Source: an uncultured Acidobacteriota bacterium (lineage in GTDB: Bacteria; Acidobacteriota; UBA6911). Taken from it: a DNA stretch of 64,000 bases. This document shows, piece after piece, positions 4,732 through 24,713 of this stretch (the first letter of the stretch is position 1; each line of letters opens with the position of its first letter). The DNA lies in the NCBI GenBank assembly GCA_963827655.1, contig CAWHCF010000047.1, positions 32,001 to 96,000 of the forward strand, written 5' to 3'. Position numbers and translations under genes: made by a program. The notes beneath the pieces were generated by a model, which saw only the letters and a list, made by a program, of their open reading frames with translations, had not been told where the DNA came from and made no database searches.

Positions 4732-4888
4732 CTCACCGAAAAGTATAGCGCCCCGGAGGGCAATCGGCATTATTGGACACACTTCCTTCGGATTTTTTCA
4801 AAGAATTTTTGCCTGGCAGTACGGCAGCAGGAAAAAGACCAACCTCTAAGACGCAAAGACTCGAAGAAACGCGAAAGGGATACGCCGA

Positions 4889-5033
4889 TCACTGATGGAC
4901 TGGTTCAAGGTCGCGAACCCTGGGCAGCACCTCTTGCTCGTAGAATCGCAGACACCATGGTTCCGAGGCCCATCCGCTCTGTGGCCTGCGCTATAGCGCC
5001 AATCACATTCCAGCCAAAGGGACTATGACCCTG
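4889..5033 (-). pseudogene. Relic of an LLM-class (F420-dependent type) oxidoreductase with a large internal deletion
   Basis: Manual translation: QGHSPFGWNVIGAIAQATERMGLGTMV joined out of frame to C-terminal LRFYEQEVLPRVRDLEPVHQ*. Family call is from motif recall. Confidence 0.6.
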
Positions 5034-5043
5034 ACGGTCTCCA

Positions 5044-6175
5044 TCACATGTTTAATTCAGCGCGCGCTTGAAGGAGCCGAAGGACATGGCTGCGTGAAAT
5101 GACTCCTTCCAGACGATGATCTGTGACGACCGGCAACTGGTTGATATCGTCGCGGCCCATCGACTCCAGAGCGTCGGCGACCGGGGTGCTCCGGATCAAC
5201 CGTGTGTAGCTTGTCGAGCGGGCGCATGATGTCGCCGACCGTCGTGTACGGCCACCTGTTTCGCGGGACTTCCTTAACTTCATGAGGCGTGACGAGACCG
5301 GCTATGTGGCCATTCTCCACGACGAAAAAACAGCGCCGTCCGGTTCGCAGCAGATAGTCGTCTGCGAAGGTCTGGAGGTTAAAGTGACGGTCCACAGTCG
5401 GGCATTCGCGAGTCATGATGTCGCCCACACGAATGCCTCGCAGATCCTCGGCCACTCTGACGCGCGTGTGGCTCTCGCGCGCCGCGACCAGGAGAAACCA
5501 GCCGATAAACGCAAGCCACAGCCCTCCCAGGCCCGCGCCGGTAAAGAAACGAAAGAATCCTGACACGATGAATCCGAACGCGATGAGCTGCCCGACGCGC
5601 GCCGCGATCCGGGTCGCCCGGCTCGGATCTTTGGTATTCCACCAAATGATCGCGCGCAACACACGCCCCCCGTCGAGCGGAAAACCAGGAATCATGTTAA
5701 ATCCAGCCAGCGTGATATTAATGTAGCCGAGCCAGACCGCCATCGCCAGCAGTTGGGTTCCTGGAGCGGCGCCGGGGGACCAGCCAAGCGCCCAGGCAAC
5801 TCCGAGGCACACAACCCCAATCACGGCGCTCGTGATCGGACCAACGATCCCCATCCAAAACTCTGTTTTCGGGTCCGGCGCCTCTCTTTCGATCTGGGCC
5901 ACACCTCCGAGGGCGAACAAAGTTATAGATCGAACCGGTAACCCGCGAGCTCTGGCGACCGCCGCATGAGAAAGCTCATGCACGACAATGGAAGCGAAGA
6001 ACAGGAGCGAAGTCGTTATCGCCAGAACCCAGATGGAGACGCTCCCCCAGTGCGCGTTCGTCGCGCTGAAGTGCCCTGCCAGTGAAAGAGTAATCAGCAG
6101 CGCGATTAGCAGCCAGCTGTAGTGAAGTCCAAGTTTGACTCCGAAGATTCGACCCAGTTTGATTTGTGCTTCCAT
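5044..6175 (-). CDS. Site-2 (M50) zinc metalloprotease with C-terminal CBS pair; frameshift near 5190
   Basis: HELSH and [11 protein letters not shown] motifs. The second CBS domain continues in ORF 5044..5283 ([10 protein letters not shown]...INQLPVV). Confidence 0.9.
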
Positions 6176-6206
6176 AGTTCTTTCCCTTCGTCACGCCCGT
6201 AGGAGA

Positions 6207-6221
6207 GCAAATTGCAGACCA
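6207..6221 (-). promoter_or_regulatory. Possible sigma-54 promoter for the M50-CBS gene
   Basis: TGGTCTGCAATTTGC (GG-N10-GC) about 30 nt upstream of the ATG. Confidence 0.45.
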
Positions 6222-6234
6222 AGCTGAGCAAGTG

Positions 6235-6306
6235 TTCGTGTCTTCGCAGTTAGCGCCCGGCAGAACAAATACCGCAAAGACCCAAGACGCCAGGAAACAC
6301 CAAGAA
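6235..6306. repeat. ~9-nt-periodic imperfect palindromic element
   Basis: TTCGTGTCTTCGCAGTTAGCGC...GAACAAATACCGCAAAGACCCAAGACGCCAGGAAACACCAAG; homologous to the reverse complement of 19480-19561. Confidence 0.75.
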
Positions 6307-6415
6307 TCGTGGGATCACCCCGCTGTGCCGGGAAGAATTCCTCGATTCCTCTAGTCGTTCTCGTCGACGAGTTCGGATAACACCCGTATGGAACCAATTA
6401 GCGGCCTACGTCCGT

Positions 6416-6430
6416 TGGCACGGATTCTGC
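6416..6430 (+). promoter_or_regulatory. Sigma-54 promoter for degP-hsp20-PRT
   Basis: TGGCACGGATTCTGC matches TGGCAC-N5-YTGC. Confidence 0.6.
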
Positions 6431-6538
6431 GTGATTGGTCTTGTTGGGTCTTCCGGTTGACCTTCGACGGGGCGTCGAATCTCAAAGAGGGTAAACACCA
6501 TGGATGCGAGATCAAACACTCTAAATGCGGATATCACA

Positions 6539-8017
6539 ATGCATTCGCCATCGAAAATGAAGGTCGGGGTGGGACTTGGAATCCTGGTGTTGGCGCTGGC
6601 TGCCCTGGCCGTAGAGATGAAGTTCGACACGGTACGAAATCTCGTTTCGGGTCCGGCACCTGGTTCCACTTCGCCGCCCCAGCCTGAAAGAACATCCGGA
6701 AAGCCGGCGCTGGTCGATCTGAGCAAGGGTTTCGCAGCGGTGTCGAAGCAAGTCGAAGGCGCCGTCGTTAACGTCAGTTCGGAACAGGTGGTCCAGACCT
6801 CTCCGCAGGAAGACATGTTTCGGCGATTCTTCGGGGATCAAGGTCCTTTTGGCAACGTTCCCAGAAACCGGAGGGAGAACAGTCTTGGTTCGGGCGTTAT
6901 CGTCGACGCCGCGGGTTATGTCCTGACTAATAACCACGTGGTCGATCGCGGGAGCAGGATCAAAGTAAAGCTGCACGACGGAAGGCAGATAAGCGCCACC
7001 GTGGTCGGGAAAGATGCGGCGACTGACCTGGCGGTGTTGAAGATTGACGCCTCCAATCTCCACGCCCTTCGCCTGGGTGATTCCAGCAAAGTAGAAGTCG
7101 GCGATTGGGTCCTGGCATTCGGGAGCCCATTTGGCCTGGAGAAAACAATGACGGCGGGAATCGTGAGCGCGAAGGGGCGTGTCATCGGAGCGAGCGCCTA
7201 CGACGATTTCCTTCAAACGGATGCTGCGATTAACCCCGGCAACAGCGGCGGACCGTTAGTGAATCTGGCCGGCGAAGTGGTCGGCATCAACACGGTTATT
7301 TTCAGCCGGAGCGGCGGCTTCGAAGGGGTTGGCTTCGCCATTCCTTCCGACCTGGCCCAAAGTGTTTACGGGCAGCTGGCGAAGAGCGGCAAGGTTACCC
7401 GCGGATGGCTTGGCGTGGACGTCCAGGAACTGACTCCTGAACTGGCGAAGAGTTTCAATCTGCGGGAGAAGAAGGGTGTGCTGGTATCCGAGGTTGAGCC
7501 CGGCAGTCCGGCCGCCAAAGCGGGAGTCAAGTCCGGCGACATCCTTCTCGAATACAACGGCAGGCCCGTCAATAGCTACAAGGATTTGTCCCTTGCGGTC
7601 GCCGAAAGCAAAGTCGGCGTTTCTTCGAAACTGAAGCTGCTGCGGCAGGGCCAGGAGGTCGCGCTGGATGTGAAGGTCGGGGAGCGTCCGGAACAGCGAA
7701 GCGAAGCTTCCGTGCCGCCGGCATCCGAGGAGCAAGGAAGGCTTGGGGTCACGGTCGCAGATATCACGCCGGAAGTAGCGCGCCAGTTAGGCGTCTCGAG
7801 CACCGAAGGCGCCCTGGTGATGGAAGTGCGGCCAGGAACTCCGGCGGATGAAGGAGGTGTCCGCCCCGGGGATGTCATCCGCGAGATCAATCGAAATCCG
7901 GTAAAGGGCGCGGGAGAATTGGTCAGCGCCGCACGGAATCTGAAGCGTGGGAGCACCGTGATGCTGAAGCTCGAACGTGAAGGCAGAGCACGGTTCGTAG
8001 CTTTTGAGGTCTCATAA
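6539..8017 (+). CDS. degP: HtrA/DegP (Do/DeqQ) serine endoprotease with two PDZ domains
   Basis: TNNHVV, DLAVLKI, TDAAINPGNSGGPL, two PDZ domains, N-terminal TM. Start is 6500 or 6539. Confidence 0.93.
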   Translation: MHSPSKMKVGVGLGILVLALAALAVEMKFDTVRNLVSGPAPGSTSPPQPERTSGKPALVDLSKGFAAVSKQVEGAVVNVSSEQVVQTSPQEDMFRRFFGDQGPFGNVPRNRRENSLGSGVIVDAAGYVLTNNHVVDRGSRIKVKLHDGRQISATVVGKDAATDLAVLKIDASNLHALRLGDSSKVEVGDWVLAFGSPFGLEKTMTAGIVSAKGRVIGASAYDDFLQTDAAINPGNSGGPLVNLAGEVVGINTVIFSRSGGFEGVGFAIPSDLAQSVYGQLAKSGKVTRGWLGVDVQELTPELAKSFNLREKKGVLVSEVEPGSPAAKAGVKSGDILLEYNGRPVNSYKDLSLAVAESKVGVSSKLKLLRQGQEVALDVKVGERPEQRSEASVPPASEEQGRLGVTVADITPEVARQLGVSSTEGALVMEVRPGTPADEGGVRPGDVIREINRNPVKGAGELVSAARNLKRGSTVMLKLEREGRARFVAFEVS

Positions 8018-8093
8018 AGCCACTCGCCCTCGCGTCTCTGCCCCGCACCTCCCTCCACAGGCGCGAAGGCGAAGTAAAAGAAAGGAGAAAGCA

Positions 8094-8699
8094 ATGTCTA
8101 AGACAAAGTCAACGCCGGAAGCAACTTCACAGCAAAGATCCGACGAAGAGGGGATCGAGCGCAGAAATCCCTACGGTTTGTCGCAATCGGACTGGAGTCC
8201 ATTCTCTTTCATGCGGCGTTTTTCTGAAGAAATGGACCGGATCTTCGAGGACTTCGGCTACGGTCGAAGCCGGCCCAGTCTCTGGAGCTCGGGTTTCGGC
8301 GGTGGCCTCACGCCGCGCAGCGAATTCGGGCGGACTATCTGGTCGCCGCAGATTGAGATGTTCGAGCGAGGCAACCAGCTTGTGGTTCGTGCCGACCTGC
8401 CCGGCTTGAAAAAGGATGATATCAAGCTCGAGGTGGCCGATAACTGTTTAACGGTCGAGGGGGAGCGGCGCTACGAGCAAGAAGAGAAGCAAGAGAATCG
8501 CTACCATAGCGAACGCAGCTATGGACGCTTCTATCGTTGCATCGAGCTGCCCAAAGGAGTCGACCCGGGTAGCGTTAACGCCACGTTCCACGATGGAGTG
8601 CTCGAAGTGACTATGCCCAAGCCCCCGAGCGAGTCTTCGGGCGGGCGCAGGATTGAGATTCAGGAGAGCGCCGCTTCCAAGACTGCCGAGAAGAAATGA
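8094..8699 (+). CDS. Hsp20/alpha-crystallin small heat-shock protein
   Basis: ADLPGL, ERSYGRFYRCIELP, ATFHDGVLEV; RBS AAGGAG. Confidence 0.92.
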   Translation: MSKTKSTPEATSQQRSDEEGIERRNPYGLSQSDWSPFSFMRRFSEEMDRIFEDFGYGRSRPSLWSSGFGGGLTPRSEFGRTIWSPQIEMFERGNQLVVRADLPGLKKDDIKLEVADNCLTVEGERRYEQEEKQENRYHSERSYGRFYRCIELPKGVDPGSVNATFHDGVLEVTMPKPPSESSGGRRIEIQESAASKTAEKK

Positions 8700-9364
8700 G
8701 TAGACGATTTCGCGACCGGACCGATGCCGGTCGCGCGCTGGGAGTCCGGCTCGCCGCGTACGCCCACAGGCCTGACGTATCAGTCCTCGCACTTCCGCGC
8801 GGCGGAGTCCCGGTAGCGTTCGAAATTGCCAAGGCTCTTCAAGCGCCCCTGGACGTTTTCCTCGTGCGAAAACTGGGGGTCCCCGGACGCGAAGAGCTGG
8901 CGATGGGTGCGATAGCGACGGGCGGTGTGCGAGTCCTGAACCAGGAAATAGTTCGGGGCTTTCACATCCCCGATCACCTGATTGAGCGCGTCTCGCGAGA
9001 TGAAGAACTTGAACTCAACCGGCGCGAACGGGCTTACCGTGGCGACCGGCCGCCCCTGGAGGTGGCCGGTCGCGCGGCTATCGTAGTGGACGATGGTCTC
9101 GCGACCGGCTCCAGCATGCGCGCTGCAACCGTCGCCCTGCGAAAACTCGAGCCGGCGCGCATCGTGGTGGCGGTTCCCGTGGCGGCGCCAGAAATCTGCA
9201 GCGAGCTTCAAACCGAGGTGGACGAGATGGTCTGTGCCCGCACTCCGGACCCATTCTACGCCGTGGGCTTGTGGTACGAAGAGTTCGATCAAACGACGGA
9301 CGACGAAGTACGCGATCTGCTCGAGCGAGCGTCGAAGGAAATATCAGCGGTACCCACTCATTGA
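8696..9364 (+). CDS. Phosphoribosyltransferase family protein
   Basis: FRDRTDAG, LALPRGGVPVA, VVDDGLATGSSM. Confidence 0.9.
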   Translation: MSRRFRDRTDAGRALGVRLAAYAHRPDVSVLALPRGGVPVAFEIAKALQAPLDVFLVRKLGVPGREELAMGAIATGGVRVLNQEIVRGFHIPDHLIERVSRDEELELNRRERAYRGDRPPLEVAGRAAIVVDDGLATGSSMRAATVALRKLEPARIVVAVPVAAPEICSELQTEVDEMVCARTPDPFYAVGLWYEEFDQTTDDEVRDLLERASKEISAVPTH

Positions 9365-9453
9365 CTAACCTTTGAGTCAACGGGCAGGGGGACGCACGAC
9401 GCACAGGTCTGACGAAGATCTTCGCAAAACCAGCTGTCCCACGTCAGCATCTT

Positions 9454-9497
9454 GTGGCGACGGGCCAAATCTGACTGTGCCTTCAGCCCGTCGCCAC
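9454..9497. repeat. REP-like hairpin
   Basis: GTGGCGACGGGC ... GCCCGTCGCCAC, a perfect 12-bp inverted repeat. Confidence 0.6.
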
Positions 9498-9640
9498 CAG
9501 GGCAAGTTGACCGAAGTCGTTCCGAGTAGGCTTGACGCGTGAAATCCTGATTAGCTCCCGCTGTGCCGCGCCTTGGGTGCTCGTTCTCTCAGGCATAAAC
9601 TCTTTCCCGGCCTTGACGGCCTAGCCATTTCCCGGGCGCT

Positions 9641-9720
9641 GGCAGCAAGCTGCCGCAGCACAAGGTGCAAGCAAGCTTAAGCAAGCTTGCGCACTCCAAA
9701 GGAGCGCCTATCGGAGTGCG
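9641..9720. repeat. REP-like element, copy 1
   Basis: GGCAGCAAGCTGCCGCAGCACAAGGTGCAAGCAAGCTT...GCACTCCAAA; near-identical copy at 55147-55198. Confidence 0.8.
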
Positions 9721-9744
9721 GTGCTGGCTTCGCCAACCATCCAG

Positions 9745-10152
9745 TCAGCGATGGGGTCGCTTTCGACGGCGCGCGGCCTGCCGCGCCTGGCGCGCGAGAG
9801 CTGTTCTCGAAGCTGCGCCGCGCCCCTCGCGCTTCAGTGCCCGCAAAGTAGCGCGTGAGCGCTTTCGTGAGGGCCTCGACTTGCGCGTGCCTTGTCCCGC
9901 ACGATAGGCGCGGACTGCGCTGCGCCGCGTTCTTTCCGGGACGCTCCCCTTCCTGGGCGGTTTCAGCTTGACTCCGGCCTTTCGCGCCTTCGACAAGCCG
10001 ATAGCAATGGCCTGCTTGGTCGATCGAACGCCGTGCTTCCCGCTTCGAACGTGGTGGATCTCCTCACGCACGAACTCGCCCGCCTGGGTTGAAGGCGACT
10101 TCCCTTCGCGTTTTGCTTTCCGAGCGCGTTCCATGGTTTTCTTTTCCGGCAT
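9745..10152 (-). CDS. Small basic DUF6496-like putative DNA-binding protein
   Basis: MPEKKTMERAR...GKSPSTQAGEFVREEIHH...KQAIAIGLSKARKAG; RBS GGAAGGGGAG. Confidence 0.8.
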   Translation of the reverse strand: MPEKKTMERARKAKREGKSPSTQAGEFVREEIHHVRSGKHGVRSTKQAIAIGLSKARKAGVKLKPPRKGSVPERTRRSAVRAYRAGQGTRKSRPSRKRSRATLRALKREGRGAASRTALARQARQAARRRKRPHR

Positions 10153-10186
10153 GTTTCTCCCCTTCCTGCTTGCTCGTGGTTTTCTC

Positions 10187-10397
10187 TTAGCGGTTGCCCG
10201 AACCGAGGCAGATCTGACAGGTTCCGGTACCCAGACACTCCACGCACTTTCTCGAAGCGCCGGGCGAGTCACTCCGGATCTTCTCGGAAACCACGCTCGG
10301 TCCCGGCAGGTTGGAGTGGCGTGATCCGGTTCCGCTAACACCTGGAACATTTGCCTGTTCCCTGGCAGCTGGCACAGACTGCAGTTTCAACTTTCAT
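10187..10397 (-). CDS. ~69-aa DnaJ-type zinc-finger protein (4x CxxCxGxG); frameshift near 10337
   Basis: Joining two frames gives CASCQGTG, CSRCSGTG, CVECLGTG, CQICLGSG. RBS GGAGG precedes the ATG. Confidence 0.75.
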
Positions 10398-10433
10398 GAC
10401 AATCCTCCATGTTTTCCACCGGACGAGAGGTGC

Positions 10434-10448
10434 GCAATTACCGTGCCT
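10434..10448 (-). promoter_or_regulatory. Sigma-54 promoter for zinc-finger and DUF6496 genes
   Basis: AGGCACGGTAATTGC (GG-N10-GC), 36 nt upstream of the ATG. Confidence 0.6.
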
Positions 10449-11096
10449 CAGCCTTCGGGTGCATTTGTTGTTCATAGCGTTGAGCTTATGGACTTTCGCG
10501 GCGGCGGCCGCCAGGAACGAACGAGAGCCACGCCTGGAAAGTTTACCCTGTTCGGATTTGAGCACCCATTGGCGCTGCAAGGTTCGGAAAGACGTCGAAA
10601 GTGCTTGTTTCTGCCATGGAGAGCACTCGCACAGTCTAGATGTGGTGCAGTGAGGGATGGCAGTTCTGCGAAAGTTGGGCGAACAACGCCCGTACCATCG
10701 GATTTGTTTGCGGGTTCGTCTTGATGACGTGCACTGCAAGTAAATCTTCGCTTCAAACCGAAGAATCACGCAATCCGAAGCGCCATTTTTTCGATGGTCC
10801 TTGTGTGGCACGATCAGGTTTGGTAGCAACACCTAGGAGCAGGTGCGAGAATGCTGTCTGAGATCGAAGAGGGCCCGCCTGGCCGACGATATCGCGGAGA
10901 CTTCGAAGGCCATCGCTGGTTCTTTTTCGAGAAGGACAAAGGATGACGCCAGGACCTGGCTACTTGCAGCCGACAAACGGCGCTCGGAAGTGAGACCTCG
11001 ATACGCGATACGTAACCCAACTGCCCCCGGCATATTAAAGATGGGCTAGGTGCCACAAGACTGTGGATTTCTGCCTAGCAGGTTGAGCCGACAAAT

Positions 11097-14000
11097 ATGA
11101 GCAACTCGAACTCAAGCGGAGAGCCGGCTCAGCAGCAACGTCGGATTTTCCTGAGTTACGGTCACGACTCGTTTATCGCGCTGGCGCGGCAGTTAAAGAT
11201 CGACCTGGAAGCGGCCGGCTTTCATGTCTGGTTCGATGAAGAGAGGCTCATGACCGGCACAGATTGGGAGGTCTATATAGAGGACGGCCTCGACTGGGTC
11301 GCCTCCGCCGCTGACGCCGGCTTCTTCTTGCTGCTCATGACCCCCCACTCCGTCCGTCGACCGGACGGCTTCTGCTTGAACGAACTCGCGCGAACCCTGT
11401 CGCGCGGCATCCCGCTTTATCCGATCATGGTCGAAAGCTGCGAACCGCCTCTCTCCATCGCGAGGCTACAGTGGCTGGATATGCAGGATTGTCTGCCGCT
11501 GGATGACCGACCTGAGCGGTACCGTCAGGCGCTGTCTCGACTGCTGAAGGCCCTGGAAGTTGGACAGGTAGAACCTACCGGAAAGTGGGCCTGGTTCCGC
11601 AAACAGTTCGGACCAATATCGTTCGAGGCCGAAATGAAGCCCCACCTGGCCCACTTCGTCGGCCGTCAGTGGGTGCTCGATGAAATCCAGGCGTGGCTTG
11701 CGGACCCTGAGGGCTCGAGCATATTCCGGATCATTGCGGAGCCAGGCGTCGGCAAGACGGCGCTGGCCACTCAACTCTGCCATAGATTGAAAGGGGTGCT
11801 TGCCTTCCACTTCTGCAAGTTCGGTCACAGCCTGAAGATCGACGCCAGGAAGTGTGTTCTTTCCCTGACCTACCAGCTGGCAACCCAAATTCCGGGCTAT
11901 GCGTCTTCCTTGGAGGCCTTGGATCTCTCCCAGATCACCACGGAAGAGAACGCTCGGTCCGTCTTCGACGCGCTTATCAGCCAGCCACTTTCCAGGCTCA
12001 CTGGTTCGCGCGAGCATGCATGCTGTATCGTGATCGATGCCCTTGACGAGGCCACCTTCGAGGGTCGGAACACCATCGCCGAGGTGATTGCTTCCGAGTT
12101 TGCGAATGTGCCGAGCTGGTTACGGCTCATCGTCACCAGCCGGCCAGAGCCGGATGTGGCCTTCCACCTTCAGGCCTACGATCCCTACATACTGGATGCA
12201 GGTTCGGCCGAGAACGCGGAAGACTTGTGTCGCTACCTGGATGGCCGTCTGCGGTCGCTGACGGCTCCTCCGGAAGCCGTAGATGCCGCTATTTCAAGCA
12301 TCCTGGCCAAGAGTGAGGGCAGCTTCCTCTTCGCCAAATGGGTTGTCGATGACCTGCAAGCGAACCGTATCGAACTGAGTCAGATCGGGCAGCTCTCGAA
12401 AGGGCTCAGCGGCGTTTATGCCGGATTCCTTTCCAGGCAGTTCCCGGATACCCAGCGGTACGACGAGCAATGCCGGCCGGCCCTGGAACTCATCGTCGCC
12501 GCGCGGCGACCGCTGCCTCCGAGCCTGATAGGCAACGCCCTCGGCTGGGACCGGCGACAGCTCCGAGACCTCCGGCGGAGCGTGGGCACGCTGTTTCCCG
12601 AATCAGAGGAAGGACTCCGACCCTTTCACAAATCCTTGAGTGACTGGCTGACCAACGAGCGGCTATCGGGTTCCTATTTTACTGCGATTGAGGACGGACA
12701 CCGGGCGCTCGCGAAAGCTGGACTCCGGCAGTGGGGTGCCGCTCCCGAAAAGTTAGATCCTTACTTCAAGGCCCATCTTCCTTATCACCTGGCCAACGCT
12801 TCGCAACCGATTGAGGCCGCGGCGATACTCAGAGACCCTCAATTTCTCCAGCATCGGTGCGATGCCGGTTTTCTCTTCGAAGCTATCCAGGACTACGAAC
12901 GGTTGCAGGATCCGGCTTTGCAGGCCATTGGCCGAGCTCTCAGCCTCTCTGCCGCACCGCTCGGCAGGGACTCATCCCAACTGCCGAGCCAACTTGTCGG
13001 ACGGCTCAGTCGGAGACCCGAACCAGCATTGCAGACCTTCCTGGAAAACCTCGACCAGCACACAAGCTTTGCGTGGCTTCGACCCCGTTTCTCGCCCCTG
13101 GCCGGCCCGGAGATACGGCTGAAGAGATACTGGAAGGCTCTGCCAAGAGTTTTCGAGTGTCGCATGATACTTTCCCAGGACGAGCAACTACTGGCCCTGA
13201 TTGGATCCGAGCAAGAACACTATTTTCGCTGCCACGACGGCCAGACCGTCGCCTCGGACCTGGCTCGGTTCGAATTGGGCGCGATCGACTCTGGTCTGTC
13301 GCGCCAACAGCTTAGCAGCCATCTCTGGGAGGTACTGCCTACGAATCACTGGTCCCAGCGCGTTGAGCGGGGCGCGATTACCGCGGTCGCAAAGTGGTAC
13401 GACAGAGAAACAGGATGGATGAGAACGTTACCAGCTTTTGTTTCCGAACTGGAGTTGAGGGTGAAGGATACCTTGGTTCCGCTCCAACCTAGCAGCGACG
13501 TGACCCTCGCCCTGTCAGTTACGGAAGACGAACGCCACCTTGTGGGTGGCGGCCGGAGCGGTCGAGTCGCGGTCTGGCGGGTTGAGGATGGCCACCTCTT
13601 GCATGATTTCCAGGTTTGCCGGACTCCCATTATCGCGATCGCCGCCACGCGAGACTTCAAGAGCGTTTTCTTTTTGACGGCCGATGGATTTCTTGGCATC
13701 TCTGCGATCCAGAGGGGCGACCCTGCTGAGCAGGCGCCCCTTGACACGAGGCGCGAATCGATCGGTTTATTCCTCGCCCCTGGCGGCGAATGGGTCGCCG
13801 CGGTTGCCAGGGACGGCAATGTCACTCAATGGAACCTCCAGACGGGTGAGAGCATGTACGAGGGCCGCGCACCCACTCCAGTCCATAAAGTCGATTTCTC
13901 TGCCAGCCAGGACCTGCGCTTCATCACCATTGAAGGGCCGGGCATGGACTACTACGATGGCAACATATTTGTGGTCCATGACTTGCTGGCAGGTCAAGAG

Positions 14001-14774
14001 GTCTACAGAGGTGCATCGGCGTTGAAAGAGTACCGTTGGAATCCGGCACTAGGTATCCTGCGGGACCGCGCGATCCTTCAGACTGACGCCATAAGCATTA
14101 ACCGTGATATGTACCACATCGACCTCAAAACGGGCGAGCTACGCACGGGGCCAGCACCAGATTCCACCGAACCACTGCCCTGGCTTGATCGGAGGTATCA
14201 GCTTTACGGCCGCGCGGGCTTTTGTCAGATCAGCGAAAACGGTCACGAGGTTCTGGTCTGGCTCAAGGGAGAGGAGGACCGATTCGTCAGCTTCACAGCG
14301 GACCAGCACATCGTGGACGTGGCCGTCGCTCGAGACAGAGCCGTTGTCGTAGCACTGGGGCTTCTTGGCCAAGTGTACGTACTCGACCTCATCCAGGGCA
14401 CCTTGATCCAGAAGTCTCTCCCAGCCGTATTGCCGCCATGGCTGATCTTGAAGGAAGAACTGGCGCAACTGGCCGCACCTGTGGCGGACCAGCTTCAACT
14501 CTTCGCGGGGCAAGGTGAAAATAGCTCCAGGGCATTGTTGTTGGCTTCGAATGTCTTCCGTCTGGCAGTTGAATTGCTGAGCTACGGCGAGGACCATTTG
14601 GCCCCGCGCCAACTGGAGACGTTGAAACAAGTCGCCGCGTTCTGGGAAAGTGCTGAGGACTCATTTTGGTCGAGACACGAGGATCCTCTGAAGGATTTCA
14701 TACAGTCGGAGCAGTGGGCTCAGTTACGGCGAATGGCGCAGGAGACACTGCGCACATTCGACAATGAGCGATGA
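11097..14774 (+). CDS. TIR - NACHT/STAND NTPase - WD40-repeat protein (NLR-like)
   Basis: TIR: RIFLSYGH, VWFDEE, FCLNEL. NTPase: FVGRQW, AEPGVGKT, CIVIDALDE, LIVTSRP, PFHKSLSDWL. WD40-like repeats (GGGRSGRVAVWRV, ARDGNVTQWNL). Confidence 0.88.
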   Translation: MSNSNSSGEPAQQQRRIFLSYGHDSFIALARQLKIDLEAAGFHVWFDEERLMTGTDWEVYIEDGLDWVASAADAGFFLLLMTPHSVRRPDGFCLNELARTLSRGIPLYPIMVESCEPPLSIARLQWLDMQDCLPLDDRPERYRQALSRLLKALEVGQVEPTGKWAWFRKQFGPISFEAEMKPHLAHFVGRQWVLDEIQAWLADPEGSSIFRIIAEPGVGKTALATQLCHRLKGVLAFHFCKFGHSLKIDARKCVLSLTYQLATQIPGYASSLEALDLSQITTEENARSVFDALISQPLSRLTGSREHACCIVIDALDEATFEGRNTIAEVIASEFANVPSWLRLIVTSRPEPDVAFHLQAYDPYILDAGSAENAEDLCRYLDGRLRSLTAPPEAVDAAISSILAKSEGSFLFAKWVVDDLQANRIELSQIGQLSKGLSGVYAGFLSRQFPDTQRYDEQCRPALELIVAARRPLPPSLIGNALGWDRRQLRDLRRSVGTLFPESEEGLRPFHKSLSDWLTNERLSGSYFTAIEDGHRALAKAGLRQWGAAPEKLDPYFKAHLPYHLANASQPIEAAAILRDPQFLQHRCDAGFLFEAIQDYERLQDPALQAIGRALSLSAAPLGRDSSQLPSQLVGRLSRRPEPALQTFLENLDQHTSFAWLRPRFSPLAGPEIRLKRYWKALPRVFECRMILSQDEQLLALIGSEQEHYFRCHDGQTVASDLARFELGAIDSGLSRQQLSSHLWEVLPTNHWSQRVERGAITAVAKWYDRETGWMRTLPAFVSELELRVKDTLVPLQPSSDVTLALSVTEDERHLVGGGRSGRVAVWRVEDGHLLHDFQVCRTPIIAIAATRDFKSVFFLTADGFLGISAIQRGDPAEQAPLDTRRESIGLFLAPGGEWVAAVARDGNVTQWNLQTGESMYEGRAPTPVHKVDFSASQDLRFITIEGPGMDYYDGNIFVVHDLLAGQEVYRGASALKEYRWNPALGILRDRAILQTDAISINRDMYHIDLKTGELRTGPAPDSTEPLPWLDRRYQLYGRAGFCQISENGHEVLVWLKGEEDRFVSFTADQHIVDVAVARDRAVVVALGLLGQVYVLDLIQGTLIQKSLPAVLPPWLILKEELAQLAAPVADQLQLFAGQGENSSRALLLASNVFRLAVELLSYGEDHLAPRQLETLKQVAAFWESAEDSFWSRHEDPLKDFIQSEQWAQLRRMAQETLRTFDNER

Positions 14775-14876
14775 GGACGAAGTTGTCTTCGCCAGCGCCC
14801 TCGTTACGTTGTCGACGGGCGAGAGGCCAAGATGCGGCACAGCGTGTGCTGTGCGCCCTTGAATTCTGATTCCCGG

Positions 14877-14950
14877 CTGAAATCAGTCGCCCTGCTCAAT
14901 ACTTACTCGAAGTCGATTCTGGCTTCTGACTCCTTGCTTCTGACTTCTCA
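14877..14950 (+). pseudogene. Possible C-terminal relic of a four-helix-bundle protein with TTCTGRC-type heptamer tail
   Basis: Translates LKSVALLNTYSKSILASDS and runs into TTCTGGC TTCTGAC TCCTTGC TTCTGAC. Family call is from recall. Confidence 0.4.
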
Positions 14951-14975
14951 AGTTCCCACGAGCCCCTTGGCTGGT

Positions 14976-17900
14976 TTAATGAAAATCGTGCGAGACCGTG
15001 GCGGGAGGAAGGGGAAGCGGCTCAACACTCCGCGCCTTCACTGAGATTACGTTCTCCTGATTCTGCAAGATGCCCTGAATGAGCAGAAAGGGTTCGTTTA
15101 CCAGCGCAACACGGTGGTGATCGAAAATGTCGGGGGTAACGATTATGTTCGAAATGCCGGTTTCATCTTCCAAACTTAAAAAGACAAACCCGTTGGCCGT
15201 ACCCGGACGCTGGCGCACGATGACGCACCCCGCTACCCGTACAGGCTGGCCATCCGGAATTCTTTGTAAATCCAGAGCGCGCAAAACGCCTATTCTCTTC
15301 AATTCATTGCGGCGGTAAGCAAGAGGATGATGGCCAATGGTCAGCCCGGTTCCGCGAAAGTCTGCGGCCATACGCTCTTCGTCAGTCATCCTGGCCAGGG
15401 GTGAACGGCTGTTTGATTCCGGAAGCTCCTGAAACAAAGGACCGGTGGGGCGTGATGCGCGCTCGGTTTCCCAGAGAGCGTCGCGGCGATGTTTTTTTTC
15501 GCTGACTTTCGATGGGATGAAGTTAAGGGCGCCTATTTCCGCCAGCAGTGTGAGCTCATTCTTTCGCAGCTCGGGAACACGCGCTGCGAGATCGTCGATC
15601 CCCTGGATAGCGAACCGCGCGCGTTCCTGGAGTAATGCGCGGGCGGCCTCTTCGCGAAGGCCCTTGGCGTAGCAAAGTCCCAGGCGCAAGCACTTTTCAC
15701 CCTGCTCTTCTTCTATGGTGCAAAGCCAGTTGGAGCGCGTGACGTCAATCGGCTTGATTCTCAAACCATGGCGTTGTCCGTCTTTGATGATGGTAGACGA
15801 GTGGTAAAAACCCATTGGCTGGTTGTTGAGCAATGCGGCGGTGAATGCAGGAAGGTAATGGCACTTCAGGTAGGCGCTGGCGTAAGCCAGCAGGGCAAAG
15901 CTCGCCGCATGAGATTCGGGAAAGCCATAGAGCGCGAATGATGTAATGGACTGCACGATGCGTTCCTGTGTCTCTTGATCGATTCCCTTACGATCCATGC
16001 CGCGCCGCAGTTTGATCTCAACTTCCCGCATGCGAGTTTCCGAGCGTTTGAACCCGAGAGCACGGCGCAGTTCCTCGGCTTCCCCGCCCGAGAATCCGGC
16101 GCAAATCATGGCCATTCTCAGCAACTGTTCTTGAAACAGGGGAACCCCAAGCGTGCGGCGAAGCACCGGTTCGAGCGAAGGGTGAAGACAGTCGGGGGGC
16201 TCGCGCCTCTGGCGGCGTCTGATATAAGGATGAACCATTTTGCCGACAATCGGACCGGGGCGGATGATCGCCACCTGGACCACGAGATCGTAAAAAGTTT
16301 TGGGACAGAGACGCGGGAGAGAGGCCATTTGGGCACGGCTCTCCACCTGAAACATTCCGATCGTGTCGGCTTTTTGTAAAGCAGCGTAAACCGCCGGATC
16401 ATCTTGCGGAAGGTGCGCGAGATCGACCTCTTCCCGGTATGAGTCGCGTATCAATTCAATCGTATCTTCCAGCACCGCCATCATCCCGAGACCCAGCAGA
16501 TCGACCTTCAGGATGCCCATGTCGGCACAGTCCTCTTTATCCCACTGAACCACGACCCGGCCGGGCATCGTGGCGGGCTCCAGCGGAACAATGGAGTCCA
16601 GTTGCCCCTGGCAAATTACCATTCCGCCGGAATGCTGCCCCAGGTGCCGCGGGAGGTCCTGCGCCGAGACATAAAGTTGCAGAAATTTCTGAATGCGAGG
16701 ATCGGCCAGGTCGAGCCCGGCATCGCGGAACTGGCGTTCCGTCGTGTCCTTGGGATCCTTCCACTCCCAGGTCCGGACCAGGCTTGAAAGGCGGCTCAGG
16801 GTCGCTTCATCGAATCCCAGGACTTTCCCGACCTCGCGCGCGGCGGAGCGCCCGCGATAGGTAATCACATTCGCCGTCATAGCGGCGCCCAATCTCCCAT
16901 AGCGCTCGTAAACGTACTGGATGGCGCGCTCGCGATGATCGCCGCTGGGAAGGTCGAGATCGATGTCCGGCCACTCGCCCCGTTCCTCGGAAAGAAACCG
17001 CTCGAAGAGTAGCTCCATGCCCACCGGGTCGACGGCGGTAATTCCCAGCGAGTAACAAACGGCGCTGTTGGCGGCCGAGCCCCGGCCTTGAATCAAAATG
17101 CCCTGATCGCGGCAAAAATTGACGATGTCCCAAACAATCAGAAAATAGCCGGGCAGATCGAGTTTTTCGATCAGCTCCAGTTCGCGCGCAATCTGGCGGT
17201 GCGCGCGGGCATAGGTTTCAGGCGTGCGATAGCGGCGGCGGGCCCCTTCGTCCGTGCGCCGGCGCAGAAACGATATCATCGTCTCGCCGGCCGGGACCGG
17301 GTACTTAGGGAACTCGTATCCTAAATCGGCAAGCGTGAAATCGAGCCGCCCGGAGAGTTCTACCGTGTTGGCGATGGCTTCGGGCTGATCGGCGAAAAGT
17401 TCCGACATGACGGCGGCCGGCTTCAAGTATCGTTCGGAGTTTCTGGCCAGGAGACGGCCCGCCGAATCGAGACGCGTCTTCTTGCGCACGCATGTGAGCA
17501 CGTCCAATAGTTCGCGCTGCTCCGGAACGGCATGGCGCGCTTCATTGGTAGCGAGCAAGGGGAGCCGGAGTCTGCGGGCTATTTCAATCACGCCCTGGTT
17601 GCGAGCTTCTTCCTCGCGGCTGAAATGGCGTTGCAGCTCGGCATATACTCCCTTTTTTCCGAACACCTGCGACATCCATTCAGCCCGGCGGCTTGCGTCC
17701 TCGAGTCCGCTTCGAAGTGAAAAGGCCAGCGGCCCCTCCTCCCCGCCGGTCAGGCAGATCAGACCCCCGGCGTGCTCCGCAATTTCTTCCAGCGTCGCCC
17801 GGCCTTCCCCTTTTTTGGCGCGCAATTTCATCTTCGTGACCAGCCGGCAGAGATTCTGATACCCCGCGCGGTTTTGAACCAGCAAGGGCCAGCGGCTCCC

Positions 17901-18119
17901 CTCGAAGGTAGTGATTTCCGAGCCGATGTGGGCCCGGATTCCCAGTTTCTTTGCCGCTAAATGGAATCGAGGCGCGCCGTAAACGCCGTCGTGATCGAGC
18001 AGCGCCAACGCAGGGCTGCCGAGTTCGGCCGAGCGGGACGCCATCTCCTCCGGAAGCGACGCTCCTTCAAGAAAACTGAAGGCGGAGCAGGCGTGAAGCT
18101 CAACGTACGATTCAGTCAT
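14976..18119 (-). CDS. dnaE2: Error-prone DNA polymerase DnaE2 (ImuC)
   Basis: YVELHACSAFSFLEGAS, GRGSAANS, PDIDLD, PRHLGQHSGG, C-terminal SHDFH. Confidence 0.96.
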   Translation of the reverse strand: MTESYVELHACSAFSFLEGASLPEEMASRSAELGSPALALLDHDGVYGAPRFHLAAKKLGIRAHIGSEITTFEGSRWPLLVQNRAGYQNLCRLVTKMKLRAKKGEGRATLEEIAEHAGGLICLTGGEEGPLAFSLRSGLEDASRRAEWMSQVFGKKGVYAELQRHFSREEEARNQGVIEIARRLRLPLLATNEARHAVPEQRELLDVLTCVRKKTRLDSAGRLLARNSERYLKPAAVMSELFADQPEAIANTVELSGRLDFTLADLGYEFPKYPVPAGETMISFLRRRTDEGARRRYRTPETYARAHRQIARELELIEKLDLPGYFLIVWDIVNFCRDQGILIQGRGSAANSAVCYSLGITAVDPVGMELLFERFLSEERGEWPDIDLDLPSGDHRERAIQYVYERYGRLGAAMTANVITYRGRSAAREVGKVLGFDEATLSRLSSLVRTWEWKDPKDTTERQFRDAGLDLADPRIQKFLQLYVSAQDLPRHLGQHSGGMVICQGQLDSIVPLEPATMPGRVVVQWDKEDCADMGILKVDLLGLGMMAVLEDTIELIRDSYREEVDLAHLPQDDPAVYAALQKADTIGMFQVESRAQMASLPRLCPKTFYDLVVQVAIIRPGPIVGKMVHPYIRRRQRREPPDCLHPSLEPVLRRTLGVPLFQEQLLRMAMICAGFSGGEAEELRRALGFKRSETRMREVEIKLRRGMDRKGIDQETQERIVQSITSFALYGFPESHAASFALLAYASAYLKCHYLPAFTAALLNNQPMGFYHSSTIIKDGQRHGLRIKPIDVTRSNWLCTIEEEQGEKCLRLGLCYAKGLREEAARALLQERARFAIQGIDDLAARVPELRKNELTLLAEIGALNFIPSKVSEKKHRRDALWETERASRPTGPLFQELPESNSRSPLARMTDEERMAADFRGTGLTIGHHPLAYRRNELKRIGVLRALDLQRIPDGQPVRVAGCVIVRQRPGTANGFVFLSLEDETGISNIIVTPDIFDHHRVALVNEPFLLIQGILQNQENVISVKARSVEPLPLPPATVSHDFH

Positions 18120-19440
18120 ACGTTCCTTCAATGAACCAGGAGCCGCTGTCCAGATCGCGCGCGATGCGGCAGAGCGTCCCGTTATTCAGTTCGACATCCC
18201 ATTCGTCCTTGGACCATCTTTCAGCAGACCACCATTCACCGGAGGTCCGCCACGGACCCGAGGATGCCACGACATCGCCCTGAACCGCCTGGAGCGATCC
18301 GGTTCTCGCCGGCGCAACGCGGACGGGAAACCCAAGAGGCGCCTCGACTTCAGCGCACAACGGGGGGCGAAACACCCGGAACCCGGCGAGACAGAGGCGC
18401 TGGGAGACGGCCGGATTAGCCTGGCCCGGGCCATTTTCCGGCCCGGTGAAATGCCGGATGCGAAAAGCTCCAGGGCGATGTGTGTCTACAAGCTCTGCTG
18501 CTCCGACGTTATCGGATCCGACCAGCTTCGCAATCCGCGCCAGTGTCAGTTCCAGTTTTTCCGGCGCCGGCGATGGAGGCACGAAGAGTCCATTCTGAAT
18601 CACCCGCGGTTTCACAGGCTCGGCCGCAAGCCAGACTGCCAGGACCGGCGCCTGAGGAGGATGACGTTCCACATCAAGCTCGAGCAGCTTCAGTAAGGTT
18701 TTGGCATCGCGCATGGCGAAAGGGAGCCGCATTCTTCGCTCATTCTCGCTCCGGTTCTCCAGTTTCAAACGAAGCCTGAGTTCGTTGGTAGCCAGCGAGC
18801 GCGTCTTGAGATGCGCGCAGAGCCGGGTTAGCAGGCTCGCCAGAATGAAGGAGAGCGGCTCTAAAAGCGATACCGGATGCTCCAGCTCGGCCCCGGTCTC
18901 GAAATTGATCACCGGCCGCGCGGGAACCAGTGGCCGATCGCTCGCGCCTTTTGCGAGCCTTTGCAAGCGGACGCCTTCCATTCCCAGTCGCTGGGAGAGG
19001 CCGGCCTCAGGGAGAGCCACGAGATCCCCAAAGCGGCGGATTCCCCAAATTCGGAGTGTCTGTTCAATTTCAAGCGCGCGGGAATCGTCGATTCCGGCCA
19101 GGAGAGGGGAAAGGATTTCCAGCGGCAGGCCACCCAAAAATTCCGCTTCCTGGCCGGGGGGTATGACGGAGATGCCTGGAAAACCTCGGGCGGCATGGAA
19201 AGCTGCGTCGGGATTACTCGCGATTGCGATGTTGACCTTGAGTCCCAGCTCCGCAGCGCTGCGCGCGATTTCGTGCGCGATATTCCGTGGCGAGCCAAAC
19301 AGGCTGCTCGATCCTCCGGCGTCCAGGATCACGGCGTCCAGCGCGCTATCCTCGACGTGAGGCGAGAATCGGCGGGCGCATTCGAGTAACAATGCGCGCC
19401 TGGAATCGGGCAGTTCAGCCCCATAGATACAGGCAAACAT
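18112..19440 (-). CDS. imuB: ImuB, inactive Y-family polymerase
   Basis: RFSPHVE, DTHRP, GPWRTSGEWW...WFIEGTYD; overlaps the dnaE2 start. Confidence 0.88.
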   Translation of the reverse strand: MFACIYGAELPDSRRALLLECARRFSPHVEDSALDAVILDAGGSSSLFGSPRNIAHEIARSAAELGLKVNIAIASNPDAAFHAARGFPGISVIPPGQEAEFLGGLPLEILSPLLAGIDDSRALEIEQTLRIWGIRRFGDLVALPEAGLSQRLGMEGVRLQRLAKGASDRPLVPARPVINFETGAELEHPVSLLEPLSFILASLLTRLCAHLKTRSLATNELRLRLKLENRSENERRMRLPFAMRDAKTLLKLLELDVERHPPQAPVLAVWLAAEPVKPRVIQNGLFVPPSPAPEKLELTLARIAKLVGSDNVGAAELVDTHRPGAFRIRHFTGPENGPGQANPAVSQRLCLAGFRVFRPPLCAEVEAPLGFPVRVAPARTGSLQAVQGDVVASSGPWRTSGEWWSAERWSKDEWDVELNNGTLCRIARDLDSGSWFIEGTYD

Positions 19441-20227
19441 GGATTAATTGGCAATTTCTTGTTTTTTGACAAGATTTCCTAGTGTTTCTTCGTGTCTTCG
19501 GTCTTAGTGGTATTTGTTCCGCGCTAACCACGAAGACACGAAGACGCGAAGAAACACGGAATATTCTTGGTTCCAGCGGAGACAAAACCGGCTTGGTTCG
19601 TTCGACCTGGAACCGAATCCCATGCAATAGACCGGCGGCGCCGCATCCCTTCCATTCCGGATTCCCTCGCTTCATTTTTAGTGCCAGGGCACATGATTGG
19701 GCTTGAGGCTCCTGGTCGATTACAACCAGACCGGTAGGCGTTGCCTCAATAGCATGGTGAAAACGAAACCAGAAAGGAGACGGAATTCGACTGGCATGAC
19801 GGGGTGAAACGTCCCCTAGATCCAGGATTACAATCCCGAAGCCCCCTCCCTGCAGCAAAAATTCCGTTGCCTTGAACGCATGCTCGATGTTGGCAGCGCA
19901 TCGAATCCATAGCAGGCGATTTAAATCAACCCCGGCGGCTGAAGCAGAGGTGGGATCGAGCGAATCATTGCAATCGACCAGAGCGCAGATCTCCTGGCGT
20001 GTGGTTGCTTCGGCCAGAATGCTCACGGCAAGGGTCGTCCGTCCTGACGATCGAGATCCGAAAATTTCCGTGATGGCCCCGCGTGGAATTCCTCCAATTA
20101 TCGAATCGACCGCCGGAATTCCACTGGAGATTACCTCGGGACCCGGCTTTTCACGGAAGCGGACAGCAGGTCCGAAACGACTGGTCAGCACGGACTCTAA
20201 CTCCCTGAGCGCGACCTTCTCTGGCAT
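19415..20227 (-). CDS. imuA: ImuA, RecA-like protein
   Basis: SSGIPAVD, GGIPRGAITEIFGSRSSGRTT, GVDLNRLLW. C-terminus extends through a repeat element. Confidence 0.85.
   Translation of the reverse strand: MPEKVALRELESVLTSRFGPAVRFREKPGPEVISSGIPAVDSIIGGIPRGAITEIFGSRSSGRTTLAVSILAEATTRQEICALVDCNDSLDPTSASAAGVDLNRLLWIRCAANIEHAFKATEFLLQGGGFGIVILDLGDVSPRHASRIPSPFWFRFHHAIEATPTGLVVIDQEPQAQSCALALKMKRGNPEWKGCGAAGLLHGIRFQVERTKPVLSPLEPRIFRVSSRLRVFVVSAEQIPLRPKTRRNTRKSCQKTRNCQLIHVCLYLWG
19480..19561. repeat. ~9-nt-periodic palindromic element at the imuA 3' end
   Basis: GTGTTTCTTCGTGTCTTCGGTCTTAGTGGT...AACCACGAAGACACGAAGACGCGAAGAAACACGG. Confidence 0.85.
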
Positions 20228-20229
20228 TA

Positions 20230-20250
20230 TATTCACCTTTTATTCACCTT
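20230..20250. promoter_or_regulatory. Putative LexA (SOS) box upstream of imuA
   Basis: Direct repeat TATTCACCTT-T-TATTCACCTT = ATTC-N7-ATTC, similar to the GTTC-N7-GTTC box of Alphaproteobacteria and Acidobacterium. Confidence 0.7.
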
Positions 20251-23945: not shown

Positions 23946-24669
23946 CTACGATGACCGCGAAGACGCCAGGACCCGATCGTTCCGCTTCGCCAGCAGTCTC
24001 CAGGGAAGCTCCAGAATTATGAAGCTCAGGAGCGCGATCAGCTCCAGGGACAAGATGTACCAGGGCCAGGGCCCCAGGTAGTCGATCAAGGAAGGCTGCG
24101 AAGGCGGGTGCCGCAGATAGCCGTAGTTCCAGCCGAAGGCCAGGTCGAGCGCGCCCACAGCCAGCGCATACAAATTGACCGCGAGAAGCATGCGAGGAAC
24201 GCTGGCGGCGCGGGGTCGAAGTTTGCGGACCGCGATCAGATAAACGATCGCCAGCAGAATGGTTCCGTGAGACCAAAAGAATTGGATGAAATCCCAGGAT
24301 GGGAAACCTAGCCCGAGGTCAGGCGTAACGACCGCGTGCAGGGTTCCGCCCAGCCCCCAGAAATAAGCAATTTCAAAGGCAAGACGATCAGGCCTGAAAA
24401 GCGCGATGATGCAAGCCAGCAAGACGCAGTGGCATAGTTCGAGCGGAAGTGAGTTCTCCCAGCTCAGTTCGCCTGCCAGCCCTTTTTGCATGTAAGCCGC
24501 TACGACATAGGCTGCAAGCGAGACGCCAAGAGCTCTACCCAGCCCGTCCCTCTGCGCGGGGGAAAACCGCTCCGCGGACCACGCGATGAGGCCGCACAGC
24601 CCCACGATGATCCCCAGTGTGACCAGGTGTTCGACGCTGAACGGTTCGAAGCTAGCCGGCTCTGGCACG
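23946..24669 (-). CDS. YwaF/TIGR02206-like integral membrane protein, in frame with the upstream peptidase
   Basis: LPLELCH, AYFWGLGG, TPDL, NYGYLRHPP, LGPWPWY. Possible own GTG start at 24669. Confidence 0.8.
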
Positions 24670-24713
24670 TCAATCGTCAATAAATCGTCAATCGTCAATC
24701 GTAAATCGTCAAT
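24669..24713. repeat. Heptamer array at the peptidase/YwaF junction
   Basis: (AATCGTC/AATCGTA)n; encodes IDDLRLTIDDLLTID on the minus strand. Confidence 0.9.

Follow-up and report, generated by a model that had tools for sequence, protein, structure and literature searches.

Several described systems resemble the gene considered here. Bacterial NACHT (bNACHT) proteins place an N-terminal effector ahead of a NACHT module and C-terminal repeats, and the available text of Kibby et al. names TIR among their effectors that target nicotinamide adenine dinucleotide (NAD+) (10.1101/2022.07.19.500537). STAND NTPases joined to LRR, WD or TPR repeats and equipped with TIR effectors are discussed in the accessible part of PMC8195603, while a survey of 589 STAND clades, as far as its available text goes, reports bacterial Apaf-1 orthologues, 198 defence-associated STAND clades, and WD40 beta-propeller sensors among the defence-associated proteins (PMC13581612, Nature 2026). 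Here we report on a single NLR-like gene (11097 to 14774, forward strand) in a 64,000-nucleotide stretch of DNA, called the window below, from an uncultured Acidobacteriota bacterium of the UBA6911 lineage (contig CAWHCF010000047.1 of assembly GCA_963827655.1, positions 32,001 to 96,000). Nucleotide positions follow the numbering of the window and residue numbers that of the 1225-residue product; the genome of origin is an incomplete assembly of 8.2 Mb in 53 contigs.

The gene encodes a TIR effector domain, a NACHT-clade switch and a repeat sensor in one polypeptide (Table 1). This is the domain anatomy proposed in an earlier note made from the letters of this DNA, which had described an intact frame of 1225 residues, a TIR domain retaining the Glu of a FCLNEL motif, Walker A and B motifs, and a helical region ahead of a divergent WD40 sensor. 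That description was right, with the WD40 resemblance resting on structural support for the blades and staying below the Pfam WD40 cut-off. The frame of 3678 nucleotides begins with ATG, comprises 1225 codons and contains no internal stop, and its GC content (0.55 to 0.61) shows no compositional contrast with the surroundings (0.54 to 0.65).

The N-terminal domain (residues 17 to 131) scored 60 bits with Pfam TIR_2, for which the cut-off is 28. The FCLNEL motif begins at residue 92 and its Glu is E96 (codon 11382-11384). Conservation was assessed over the N-terminal ~620 residues in 120 sequences, namely the NLR-like protein and 119 of the 120 best homologues listed, with P0003 omitted as its N-terminal part is missing. 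Position 96 is Glu in all 120 sequences, C93 and N95 are likewise invariant, and together they belong to a near-invariant motif, R87-R88-P89-x-G91-x-C93-L94-N95-E96. In a profile built from 15 family members, the CLNE Glu aligned to the Glu of 'WVHKEI' in the TIR domain of SARM1, which we take to be the catalytic Glu of SARM1, and the PDB entries of the SARM1 TIR carry the title NAD(+) hydrolase. E96 is thus the putative catalytic residue of the domain. Six of the 120 listed homologues contain a NUDIX domain (P0029, P0035, P0054, P0075, P0078 and P0102) and at one locus (L022) a NUDIX gene adjoins the homologue, which is consistent with ADP-ribose-type products. The genome of origin holds 31 matches to Pfam TIR_2, 30 of them above the cut-off, and the NLR-like protein provides its only strong NPHP3_N match and the only TIR fused to one. 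Three of the TIR_2 matches lie near one another on contig C7.

The NTPase core belongs to the NACHT clade. We take the NACHT signature (Koonin & Aravind 2000; Leipe et al. 2004) to consist of a Walker A ending in GK[ST], a Walker B Asp followed by D-[GAS]-h-D-E, and T-[ST]-R-P. The protein carries each of these motifs and exceeds the cut-off of Pfam NPHP3_N over residues 191 to 349 (88.7 bits against 24.8, E 6.1e-25) and that of AAA_16 (40.6 bits against 32.6), with the classical NACHT model PF05729, listed for many homologues, remaining under its cut-off (19.8 bits against 26.7). Across the alignment G217, G219 and K220 of Walker A, as well as D314 and D317, are present in 120 of 120 sequences and E318 in 119, while T347-S348-R349 of the T347-S348-R349-P350 motif that follows Walker B is conserved in 118 to 119. 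Barring position 214, Walker A, D314-A-L-D317-E318 and T347-S348-R349-P350 are kept in 109 to 120 of the 120 sequences. Behind the NTPase, HTH_TANC1 (residues 449 to 569, 23.4 bits, E 5.8e-5) and an APAF1_C-like helical stretch (544 to 604, E 0.017) matched under their cut-offs, and F510-H511 in the winged helix is invariant (H511 in 120 of 120). H511 may correspond to the His in the winged helix of NLRC4 and bNACHT25 at which mutations cause hyperactivity (10.1101/2022.07.19.500537). The family-wide conservation of E96, K220, D314, D317 and E318 argues that enzyme and switch work throughout the family.

An AlphaFold2 model of residues 1 to 620, computed with 14 homologues, had a mean predicted local distance difference test score (pLDDT) of 79.8, and the winged-helix and linker region was entirely helical in it (pLDDT 84 to 95). 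Searched with Foldseek, the model matched Avs3, Apaf-1, the plant TIR-NLR RPP1, MalT, NLRP3 and NOD2 (E 4.6e-8 to ~1e-4). The protein is therefore predicted to have a STAND fold in which winged-helix and helical domains follow the NTPase.

The C-terminal half was modelled (residues 621 to 1225, mean pLDDT 69.8) as two helices, ~36 beta-strands extending to ~1100, and four helices at 1114 to 1225. By sequence, the resemblance to WD40 proteins is limited to about three blades (785 to 945), where phmmer against the PDB retrieved SMU1 and RACK1 (best E 6.2e-5). The Pfam beta-propeller models over ~790 to 960 remained far under their cut-offs (best 30.3 bits against 305), a Beta-prop_NWD2_C match was weak, and no Pfam WD40 model reached its cut-off (PF00400, 14.9 bits against 27). 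In structural comparison, VIA-align matched model residues 52 to 260 to WD40 propellers with Z 11 to 14.5 and a root mean square deviation of 3.3 to 4.2 Å over 159 to 187 residues, and Foldseek matched WD40 proteins at E 1e-16 to 1e-11, but with template modelling (TM) scores of 0.15 to 0.24. The model supports four-stranded propeller blades and leaves blade count and ring closure unfixed.

The ~120 residues beyond the propeller form a tail that gave no Pfam match at E<=10, no usable match in the ESM Atlas and no second copy in the genome of origin at E<=1 with this query. Its VIA-align matches were generic helix bundles only, with Z ~10 to 11, under the level that the tool regards as meaningful for helical folds. 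An exhaustive search of the C-terminal 605 residues against 1.84 billion representatives found only P0003 and two fragments to be close; apart from them it gave WD40-repeat matches to ~790-920 and a few matches of one stretch that reach to ~1100, and the tail itself was matched only by P0003, the representative of the protein's own 90%-identity cluster. Compared with the other relatives, the tail is confined to this cluster, with the two 82%-identical proteins described below (P0002 and P0277) also having it at 67.5% identity. We rejected the idea that the tail is a Death-like or effector-associated adaptor with a homotypic partner, given the missing second genomic copy, the missing Pfam match and the generic bundles. 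The degenerate propeller and this private helical tail are the only distinctive features of the NLR-like protein.

The architecture as such is not new. A search of a collection of 5.8 billion proteins, in which 8000 candidates were scored, returned 764 proteins at E<=1e-3, and among the matches listed only one cluster, P0002 and P0277 (1228 residues), is close over the full length, at 82% identity. By region, identity to P0002 amounts to 86% in the TIR, 87% in the NTPase, 81% in the propeller and 67.5% in the tail. The remaining listed homologues share ~35 to 48% identity over the N-terminal ~600 residues (from ~15) and continue into WD40/propeller repeats or TPRs. Most of the 120 best listed end in WD40 or beta-propeller families and the rest in TPR, so the WD40 sensor, which the earlier note had singled out for not being a TPR, is nothing unusual. 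A conserved N-terminal part (~45% over ~600 residues) combined with swapped WD40 and TPR ends is the pattern of a shared effector-switch module whose sensors can be exchanged. When GTDB was scanned with one genome for each species, relatives turned up at 160 loci, spread over Acidobacteriota, Planctomycetota, Bacteroidota, Verrucomicrobiota, Desulfobacterota, Proteobacteria, Myxococcota and other phyla, with three archaeal records in addition (L035, L057 and L060). Proteins that join TIR-NPHP3_N to a WD40 or TPR end thus number in the hundreds, in many bacterial phyla and some archaea. At one of these loci, in an uncultured Saccharicrinis (L048), two paralogues stand in tandem (4840-9837 and 9887-12871), one of them a TPR form of 1666 residues, and at another (L040) the homologue is split into open reading frames (ORFs) of 408 and 869 residues.

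Searching 40 related genomes, 24 of the same family, with the whole protein gave no full-length copy, and the six genomes with any match had TIR-only or propeller-only matches (best E 1.6e-6). This fits an accessory gene. The earlier note had held that a vertically conserved non-defence context would speak against its reading, and among these 40 relatives no such conservation was found.

The nearest counterparts of the protein are uncharacterised TIR-NPHP3_N-WD40 and -TPR proteins (for example P0004 to P0121, named 'TIR domain-containing protein' at NCBI and 'WD40 repeat protein' at JGI), which have in common with it the TIR, NTPase and winged-helix module and the invariant motifs. Its propeller is far more degenerate than theirs, some of which, such as that of the split copy at L040, reach E<=1e-118 with WD40. 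bNACHT proteins have a similar layout, yet no PADLOC NLR-like/bNACHT model matches the protein at E<=1; none of the tested bNACHT proteins named in the available text of Kibby et al. is a TIR-NACHT-WD40 protein, and the term 'WD40' is missing from that text (10.1101/2022.07.19.500537). Avs3 (8dgc) shares the STAND fold and was the top Foldseek match (E 4.6e-8), but with 14 to 16% identity and a TM-score of 0.27, and it belongs to another NTPase clade. Apaf-1 and Dark likewise combine a STAND NTPase, a helical domain and WD40 propellers: the N-terminal model matched Apaf-1 at E 2e-7, and the C-terminal model matched the helical-domain-plus-propeller part of Dark with VIA-align Z 10.9 over 326 residues. 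The plant TIR-NLR RPP1 has the same order of TIR and STAND NTPase. These three, however, have AP-ATPase/NB-ARC NTPases, with CARD or LRR replacing the TIR or the propeller, whereas the NLR-like protein has a Walker B followed by the NACHT-type D-x-x-D-E. Its best Pfam models, NPHP3_N, HTH_TANC1 and AAA_lid_TANC1, point instead to NPHP3, TANC1 and fungal NLRs of the NWD2/HET-E type, from which it differs in being bacterial and TIR-headed and in having winged-helix and lid matches under cut-off. It falls outside Thoeris ThsB as well: with the NCBIfam type III ThcB4 model (E 2.9e-5) it scored 23 bits, the cut-off being 220, and a ThsA-type effector gene was not found among its neighbours in the window.

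We hypothesize, with confidence somewhat above even, that the gene encodes a single-gene NLR-like STAND receptor in which trigger-driven oligomerisation switches on NAD+ cleavage by the TIR domain. To the domain order, fold and residue conservation described above, solved STAND/NLR and TIR systems would add, by analogy, the activation, oligomerisation, NADase activity and trigger. At rest the protein would be a closed, ADP-bound monomer whose propeller holds the NTPase shut. Binding of a trigger, most likely a phage protein or that of another invader, to the propeller would let the NACHT modules exchange nucleotide and oligomerise, gathering the N-terminal TIRs into composite active sites capable of E96-dependent NAD+ cleavage. 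Because no effector gene is linked downstream, the likeliest output would be abortive infection, in which NAD+ is depleted and the infected cell stops growing or dies, and not a relayed nucleotide signal. The role in defence is one that we infer from domain logic.

The one-gene nature of the system can be judged from the loci of homologues. Of 79 such loci, 34 had a length of 21 kb or more, and 28 of these were used with two genes on each side (112 proteins), leaving aside L045, in which the crude ORF picker recognised no ORF, and five loci among L082 to L091. There was no recurrent partner gene across these 28 loci, which supports a one-gene system. At E<=1e-12, PADLOC models matched 13 neighbouring proteins in 12 loci, all but one at the level of domains (kinase, TPR, WD40, methyltransferase, GlgB, cyclase domain, NUDIX, RelA/SpoT and TIR). 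By our own Pfam labelling, for which there is no base-rate control, an NLR-like or conflict-type gene stands within two genes of the homologue in 11 of the 28 loci. They encode DUF4062-TPR (twice), a second TIR-NPHP3_N-TPR, CHAT, patatin-TPR-S, kinase-TPR, SAM-cyclase-AAA_16-TPR, RelA/SpoT-RyR, YobI, a TIR protein and NUDIX; the neighbours at the remaining loci are housekeeping genes.

Several observations weigh against the receptor as proposed. With PADLOC, the protein itself gave only weak TIR-domain matches (best E 4.5e-6) and a 20-residue P-loop match, and no NLR, bNACHT or Avs model at E<=1. No defence island is evident around the gene: none of its 16 neighbours in the window hit a PADLOC defence model at E<=1e-8, a generic trypsin-domain match of DegP aside, and a clear known defence neighbour was seen in one of the 28 homologous loci only (a near-full-length Tmn at L059). 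Both of these checks had been suggested by the earlier note, whose one-gene immune receptor therefore stands in its anatomy and NLR-like character, the anti-phage part being a matter of inference. Among the papers listed by a full-text literature search there was no experimental study of a bacterial TIR-NACHT protein. The propeller model is of moderate confidence and its global shape unsettled, as the pLDDT and TM-scores given above indicate. Beside the P-loop, the protein has R211 where 117 of 120 sequences have W and A214 where 113 have G, and of the 138 alignment columns with conservation of 90% or more it departs from the consensus in 10, the family median being 4. Finally, its 90%-identity cluster comprises eight members on six contigs, of which the product of 11097 to 14774 is the only full-length one; the other five contigs hold the gene in pieces only.

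The first alternative keeps the same switch and assigns it a role other than anti-phage defence, as a sensor for regulated cell death, kin recognition or another conflict that responds to an endogenous or non-viral cue. The rarity of canonical defence genes beside family members (1 of 28 loci) and the frequency of other NLR-like or conflict genes (11 of 28, with the reservation on labelling made above) favour it, as does the number of TIR_2 matches in the genome of origin, an expansion typical of conflict-type repertoires. STAND-repeat proteins with TIR effectors have also been described in conflict systems of bacteria with complex lifestyles, according to the accessible part of PMC8195603. 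On the other hand, the tested bacterial NACHT and Avs proteins named in the available texts of 10.1101/2022.07.19.500537 and PMC13581612 all act against phage, and the sporadic distribution and fast-evolving sensor fit parasite pressure equally well. We regard this alternative as rather unlikely, although it is the strongest competitor of the anti-phage receptor.

A second and less probable explanation, which we consider unlikely, is that the window holds a decaying or inactive copy whose frame is intact but whose switch is impaired, its lineage being in the course of losing the gene. It draws on the pieces on the other five contigs of the 90%-identity cluster (P0003; P0272; P0273; P0271, P0275 and P0276; and P0274, which shares its contig with P0122, a cluster of its own). 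At least four of these pieces end out of frame, at no fewer than three different places (near residues 370, 395 and 951), and neither of the two break sites inspected shows a homopolymer run in the window DNA. The W211R and G214A changes adjoining the P-loop and a gene remnant just upstream point in the same direction. Yet the frame is fully open in the window and also in P0002 and P0277, the former of which retains W and G at positions 211 and 214. The classical Walker A pattern, [AG]-x4-G-K-[ST], permits Ala at its first position, the catalytic and nucleotide-binding residues are all retained, and the departures from consensus are numerous without being extreme, as 9 of the 120 sequences have at least 10. 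Moreover, short contigs from public runs, belonging to related strains that are 88 to 99% alike, cross both sites gap-free (X1 and X2 at ~12200, and again X1 and X2 at ~13950), and no indel was reported at these two break sites in four runs from three studies. The fragments in close relatives may reflect recurrent loss or assembly error, and strain-specific breaks are also possible.

The same features allow a bolder conjecture, to which we give a low probability. The degenerate propeller capped by a four-helix bundle might be a new STAND sensor module, with a trigger unlike those of the WD40 and TPR relatives, and the repeated breakage in near-identical strains might record ongoing gain-and-loss selection acting, in a soil bacterium with ~30 TIR genes, on a TIR suicide switch that carries a cost.

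Least probable of all is that the TIR generates a signal or serves as a protein-protein adaptor while an unlinked effector kills: TIRs of Thoeris systems synthesise signalling nucleotides, the protein has weak ThcB4 (NCBIfam) and ThsB (PADLOC) matches and the genome encodes many other TIR proteins, but there is no conserved neighbour across the 28 loci, the tail has no second genomic copy able to pair with an effector, and the invariant Glu speaks against a TIR that is an adaptor only.

The NLR-like gene, read as a TIR-NACHT receptor, provides an intact and clearly delimited member of a large family that spans many phyla, apparently lacks a published test and lies, by Pfam models, near the eukaryotic NACHT proteins of the NPHP3/TANC/NWD type. 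This family could show whether bacteria already use plant-like TIR-NLR logic, built there on a NACHT switch and a propeller sensor. For such work the present copy is a less attractive subject than the canonical WD40 and TPR relatives, because its host is represented only by an incomplete assembly in 53 contigs, it has a degenerate sensor and the relatives closest to it appear only in fragments.

Table 1. Position and basis of the domains of the NLR-like protein, of the neighbouring features in the window, and of the gene pieces in close relatives.
Feature	Position	Strand	Basis or context
Whole ORF (1225 aa + stop)	11097..14774	+	TIR - NACHT-clade NTPase - winged helix/helical domain - beta-propeller - helical tail
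TIR domain, residues 17-131	11145..11489	+	Pfam TIR_2, E 4.2e-16
NACHT-clade P-loop NTPase core, residues 191-349	11667..12143	+	Pfam NPHP3_N, 88.7 bits
Walker A, A214-x4-G219-K220-T221	11736-11759	+	motif, alignment conservation
Walker B and NACHT-type acidic pair, I311..D314-A-L-D317-E318	12027-12050	+	motif, alignment conservation
Winged helix (TANC1-like, residues 449-569) and helical linker to ~655	12441..13061	+	HTH_TANC1, model
Divergent WD40-like beta-propeller sensor (predicted), ~residues 656-1105	13062..14411	+	phmmer, model, VIA-align
C-terminal helical bundle (predicted), lineage-specific, residues 1106-1225	14412..14771	+	four long helices in model
DegP	6500-8017		upstream of NLR-like gene
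Hsp20	8004-8699		upstream of NLR-like gene
Phosphoribosyltransferase (PRTase)	8696-9364		upstream of NLR-like gene
Short dispersed repeat	9621..9734	not set	between PRTase and DUF6496 genes
Glyoxalase/VOC-family gene remnant (3' end)	10785..10940	+	in-frame stop; ~155 bp before NLR start
DnaE2	14976-18131	-	downstream, convergent
ImuB	18112-19440	-	downstream
ImuA	19415-20236	-	downstream
Fragment, 872 aa	matches from residue 372
Fragment, 961 aa	matches residues 1-951, then out of frame
Fragment, 438 aa	matches residues 369-726
Three pieces on one contig (306+228+214 aa)	residues 193-395, 690-917, 920-1225
Two pieces sharing a contig (lengths 153 and 336 aa)	residues 696-951, 1073-1225

The gene lies between a stress cluster (degP, hsp20 and the PRTase gene) and the dnaE2-imuB-imuA cassette, as the earlier note had it. 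Further upstream are a MoxR-DUF58-BatA/VWA set and an M50 protease, and a small DUF6496 gene on the reverse strand follows the PRTase gene. The upstream neighbour of the NLR-like gene is divergent and its downstream neighbour convergent, and the gene is therefore monocistronic. The poorly coding flanks with relics that had been described for it exist on the upstream side, where ~950 bp (10150-11096) contain no ORF with a family match and the glyoxalase remnant is found; downstream, the stop of the convergent dnaE2 is only 201 bp away. No RNA family was found in 9000-15200 at E<=0.1, and a scan of 10700-15050 found nothing promoter-like, nor anything terminator-like in the two intergenic stretches that flank the gene. 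No RNA dataset was listed among the public runs that contain part of the stretch. These runs contain at most 0.16 of its sampled words, in short contigs of low depth, and are therefore uninformative on habitat or abundance.

The remnant covers the 3'-terminal ~56 codons of a gene of the glyoxalase family. It has 87% DNA identity to positions 258220-258338 of contig C23 of the same genome and gave 35 of 56 identities by tblastn (E 2e-16) with a stop inside; the intact paralogue is the Pfam Glyoxalase ORF at 257798-258334 of that contig. The short repeat has 11 further partial copies in the genome of origin (75 to 93% identity) and 14 matches in a relative (G007), with ~40 to 110 bp matched per copy, and is possibly an element resembling repetitive extragenic palindromes or miniature inverted-repeat transposable elements. 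Between the repeat and the NLR-like gene, two overlapping ORFs on the reverse strand (10187-10390 and 10335-10832) lie in different frames and both end in cysteine motifs of the CxxCxGxG type (CASCQGTGKCSRC; CVECLGTGTCQICLGSG). Pfam matches neither of them, and together they may be a small zinc-ribbon gene with a frameshift.

On the other side, 14976-20236 (reverse strand) is a complete imuA-imuB-dnaE2 mutagenesis cassette. Orthologues of dnaE2 with 62 to 74% identity occur in eight of the relatives searched, and their downstream neighbours differ in the three loci examined (G014, G009 and G007, 73 to 74% identity), where no other gene of the window lies downstream. No 'empty site' can therefore be reconstructed. 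A functional link of the NLR-like gene to imuA-imuB-dnaE2 or to the stress genes was rejected, as the adjacency is not conserved in relatives.

Two large ORFs beyond the cassette deserve mention in their own right. One (28264-37005, forward strand) encodes 2913 residues with GH94 supersandwich, GH94 catalytic and glucoamylase domains, in a layout like that of cyclic beta-1,2-glucan synthase. The other (23946-27707, reverse strand) encodes 1253 residues and joins an M14 zinc carboxypeptidase to a C-terminal TMEM164-family domain, an unusual pairing.

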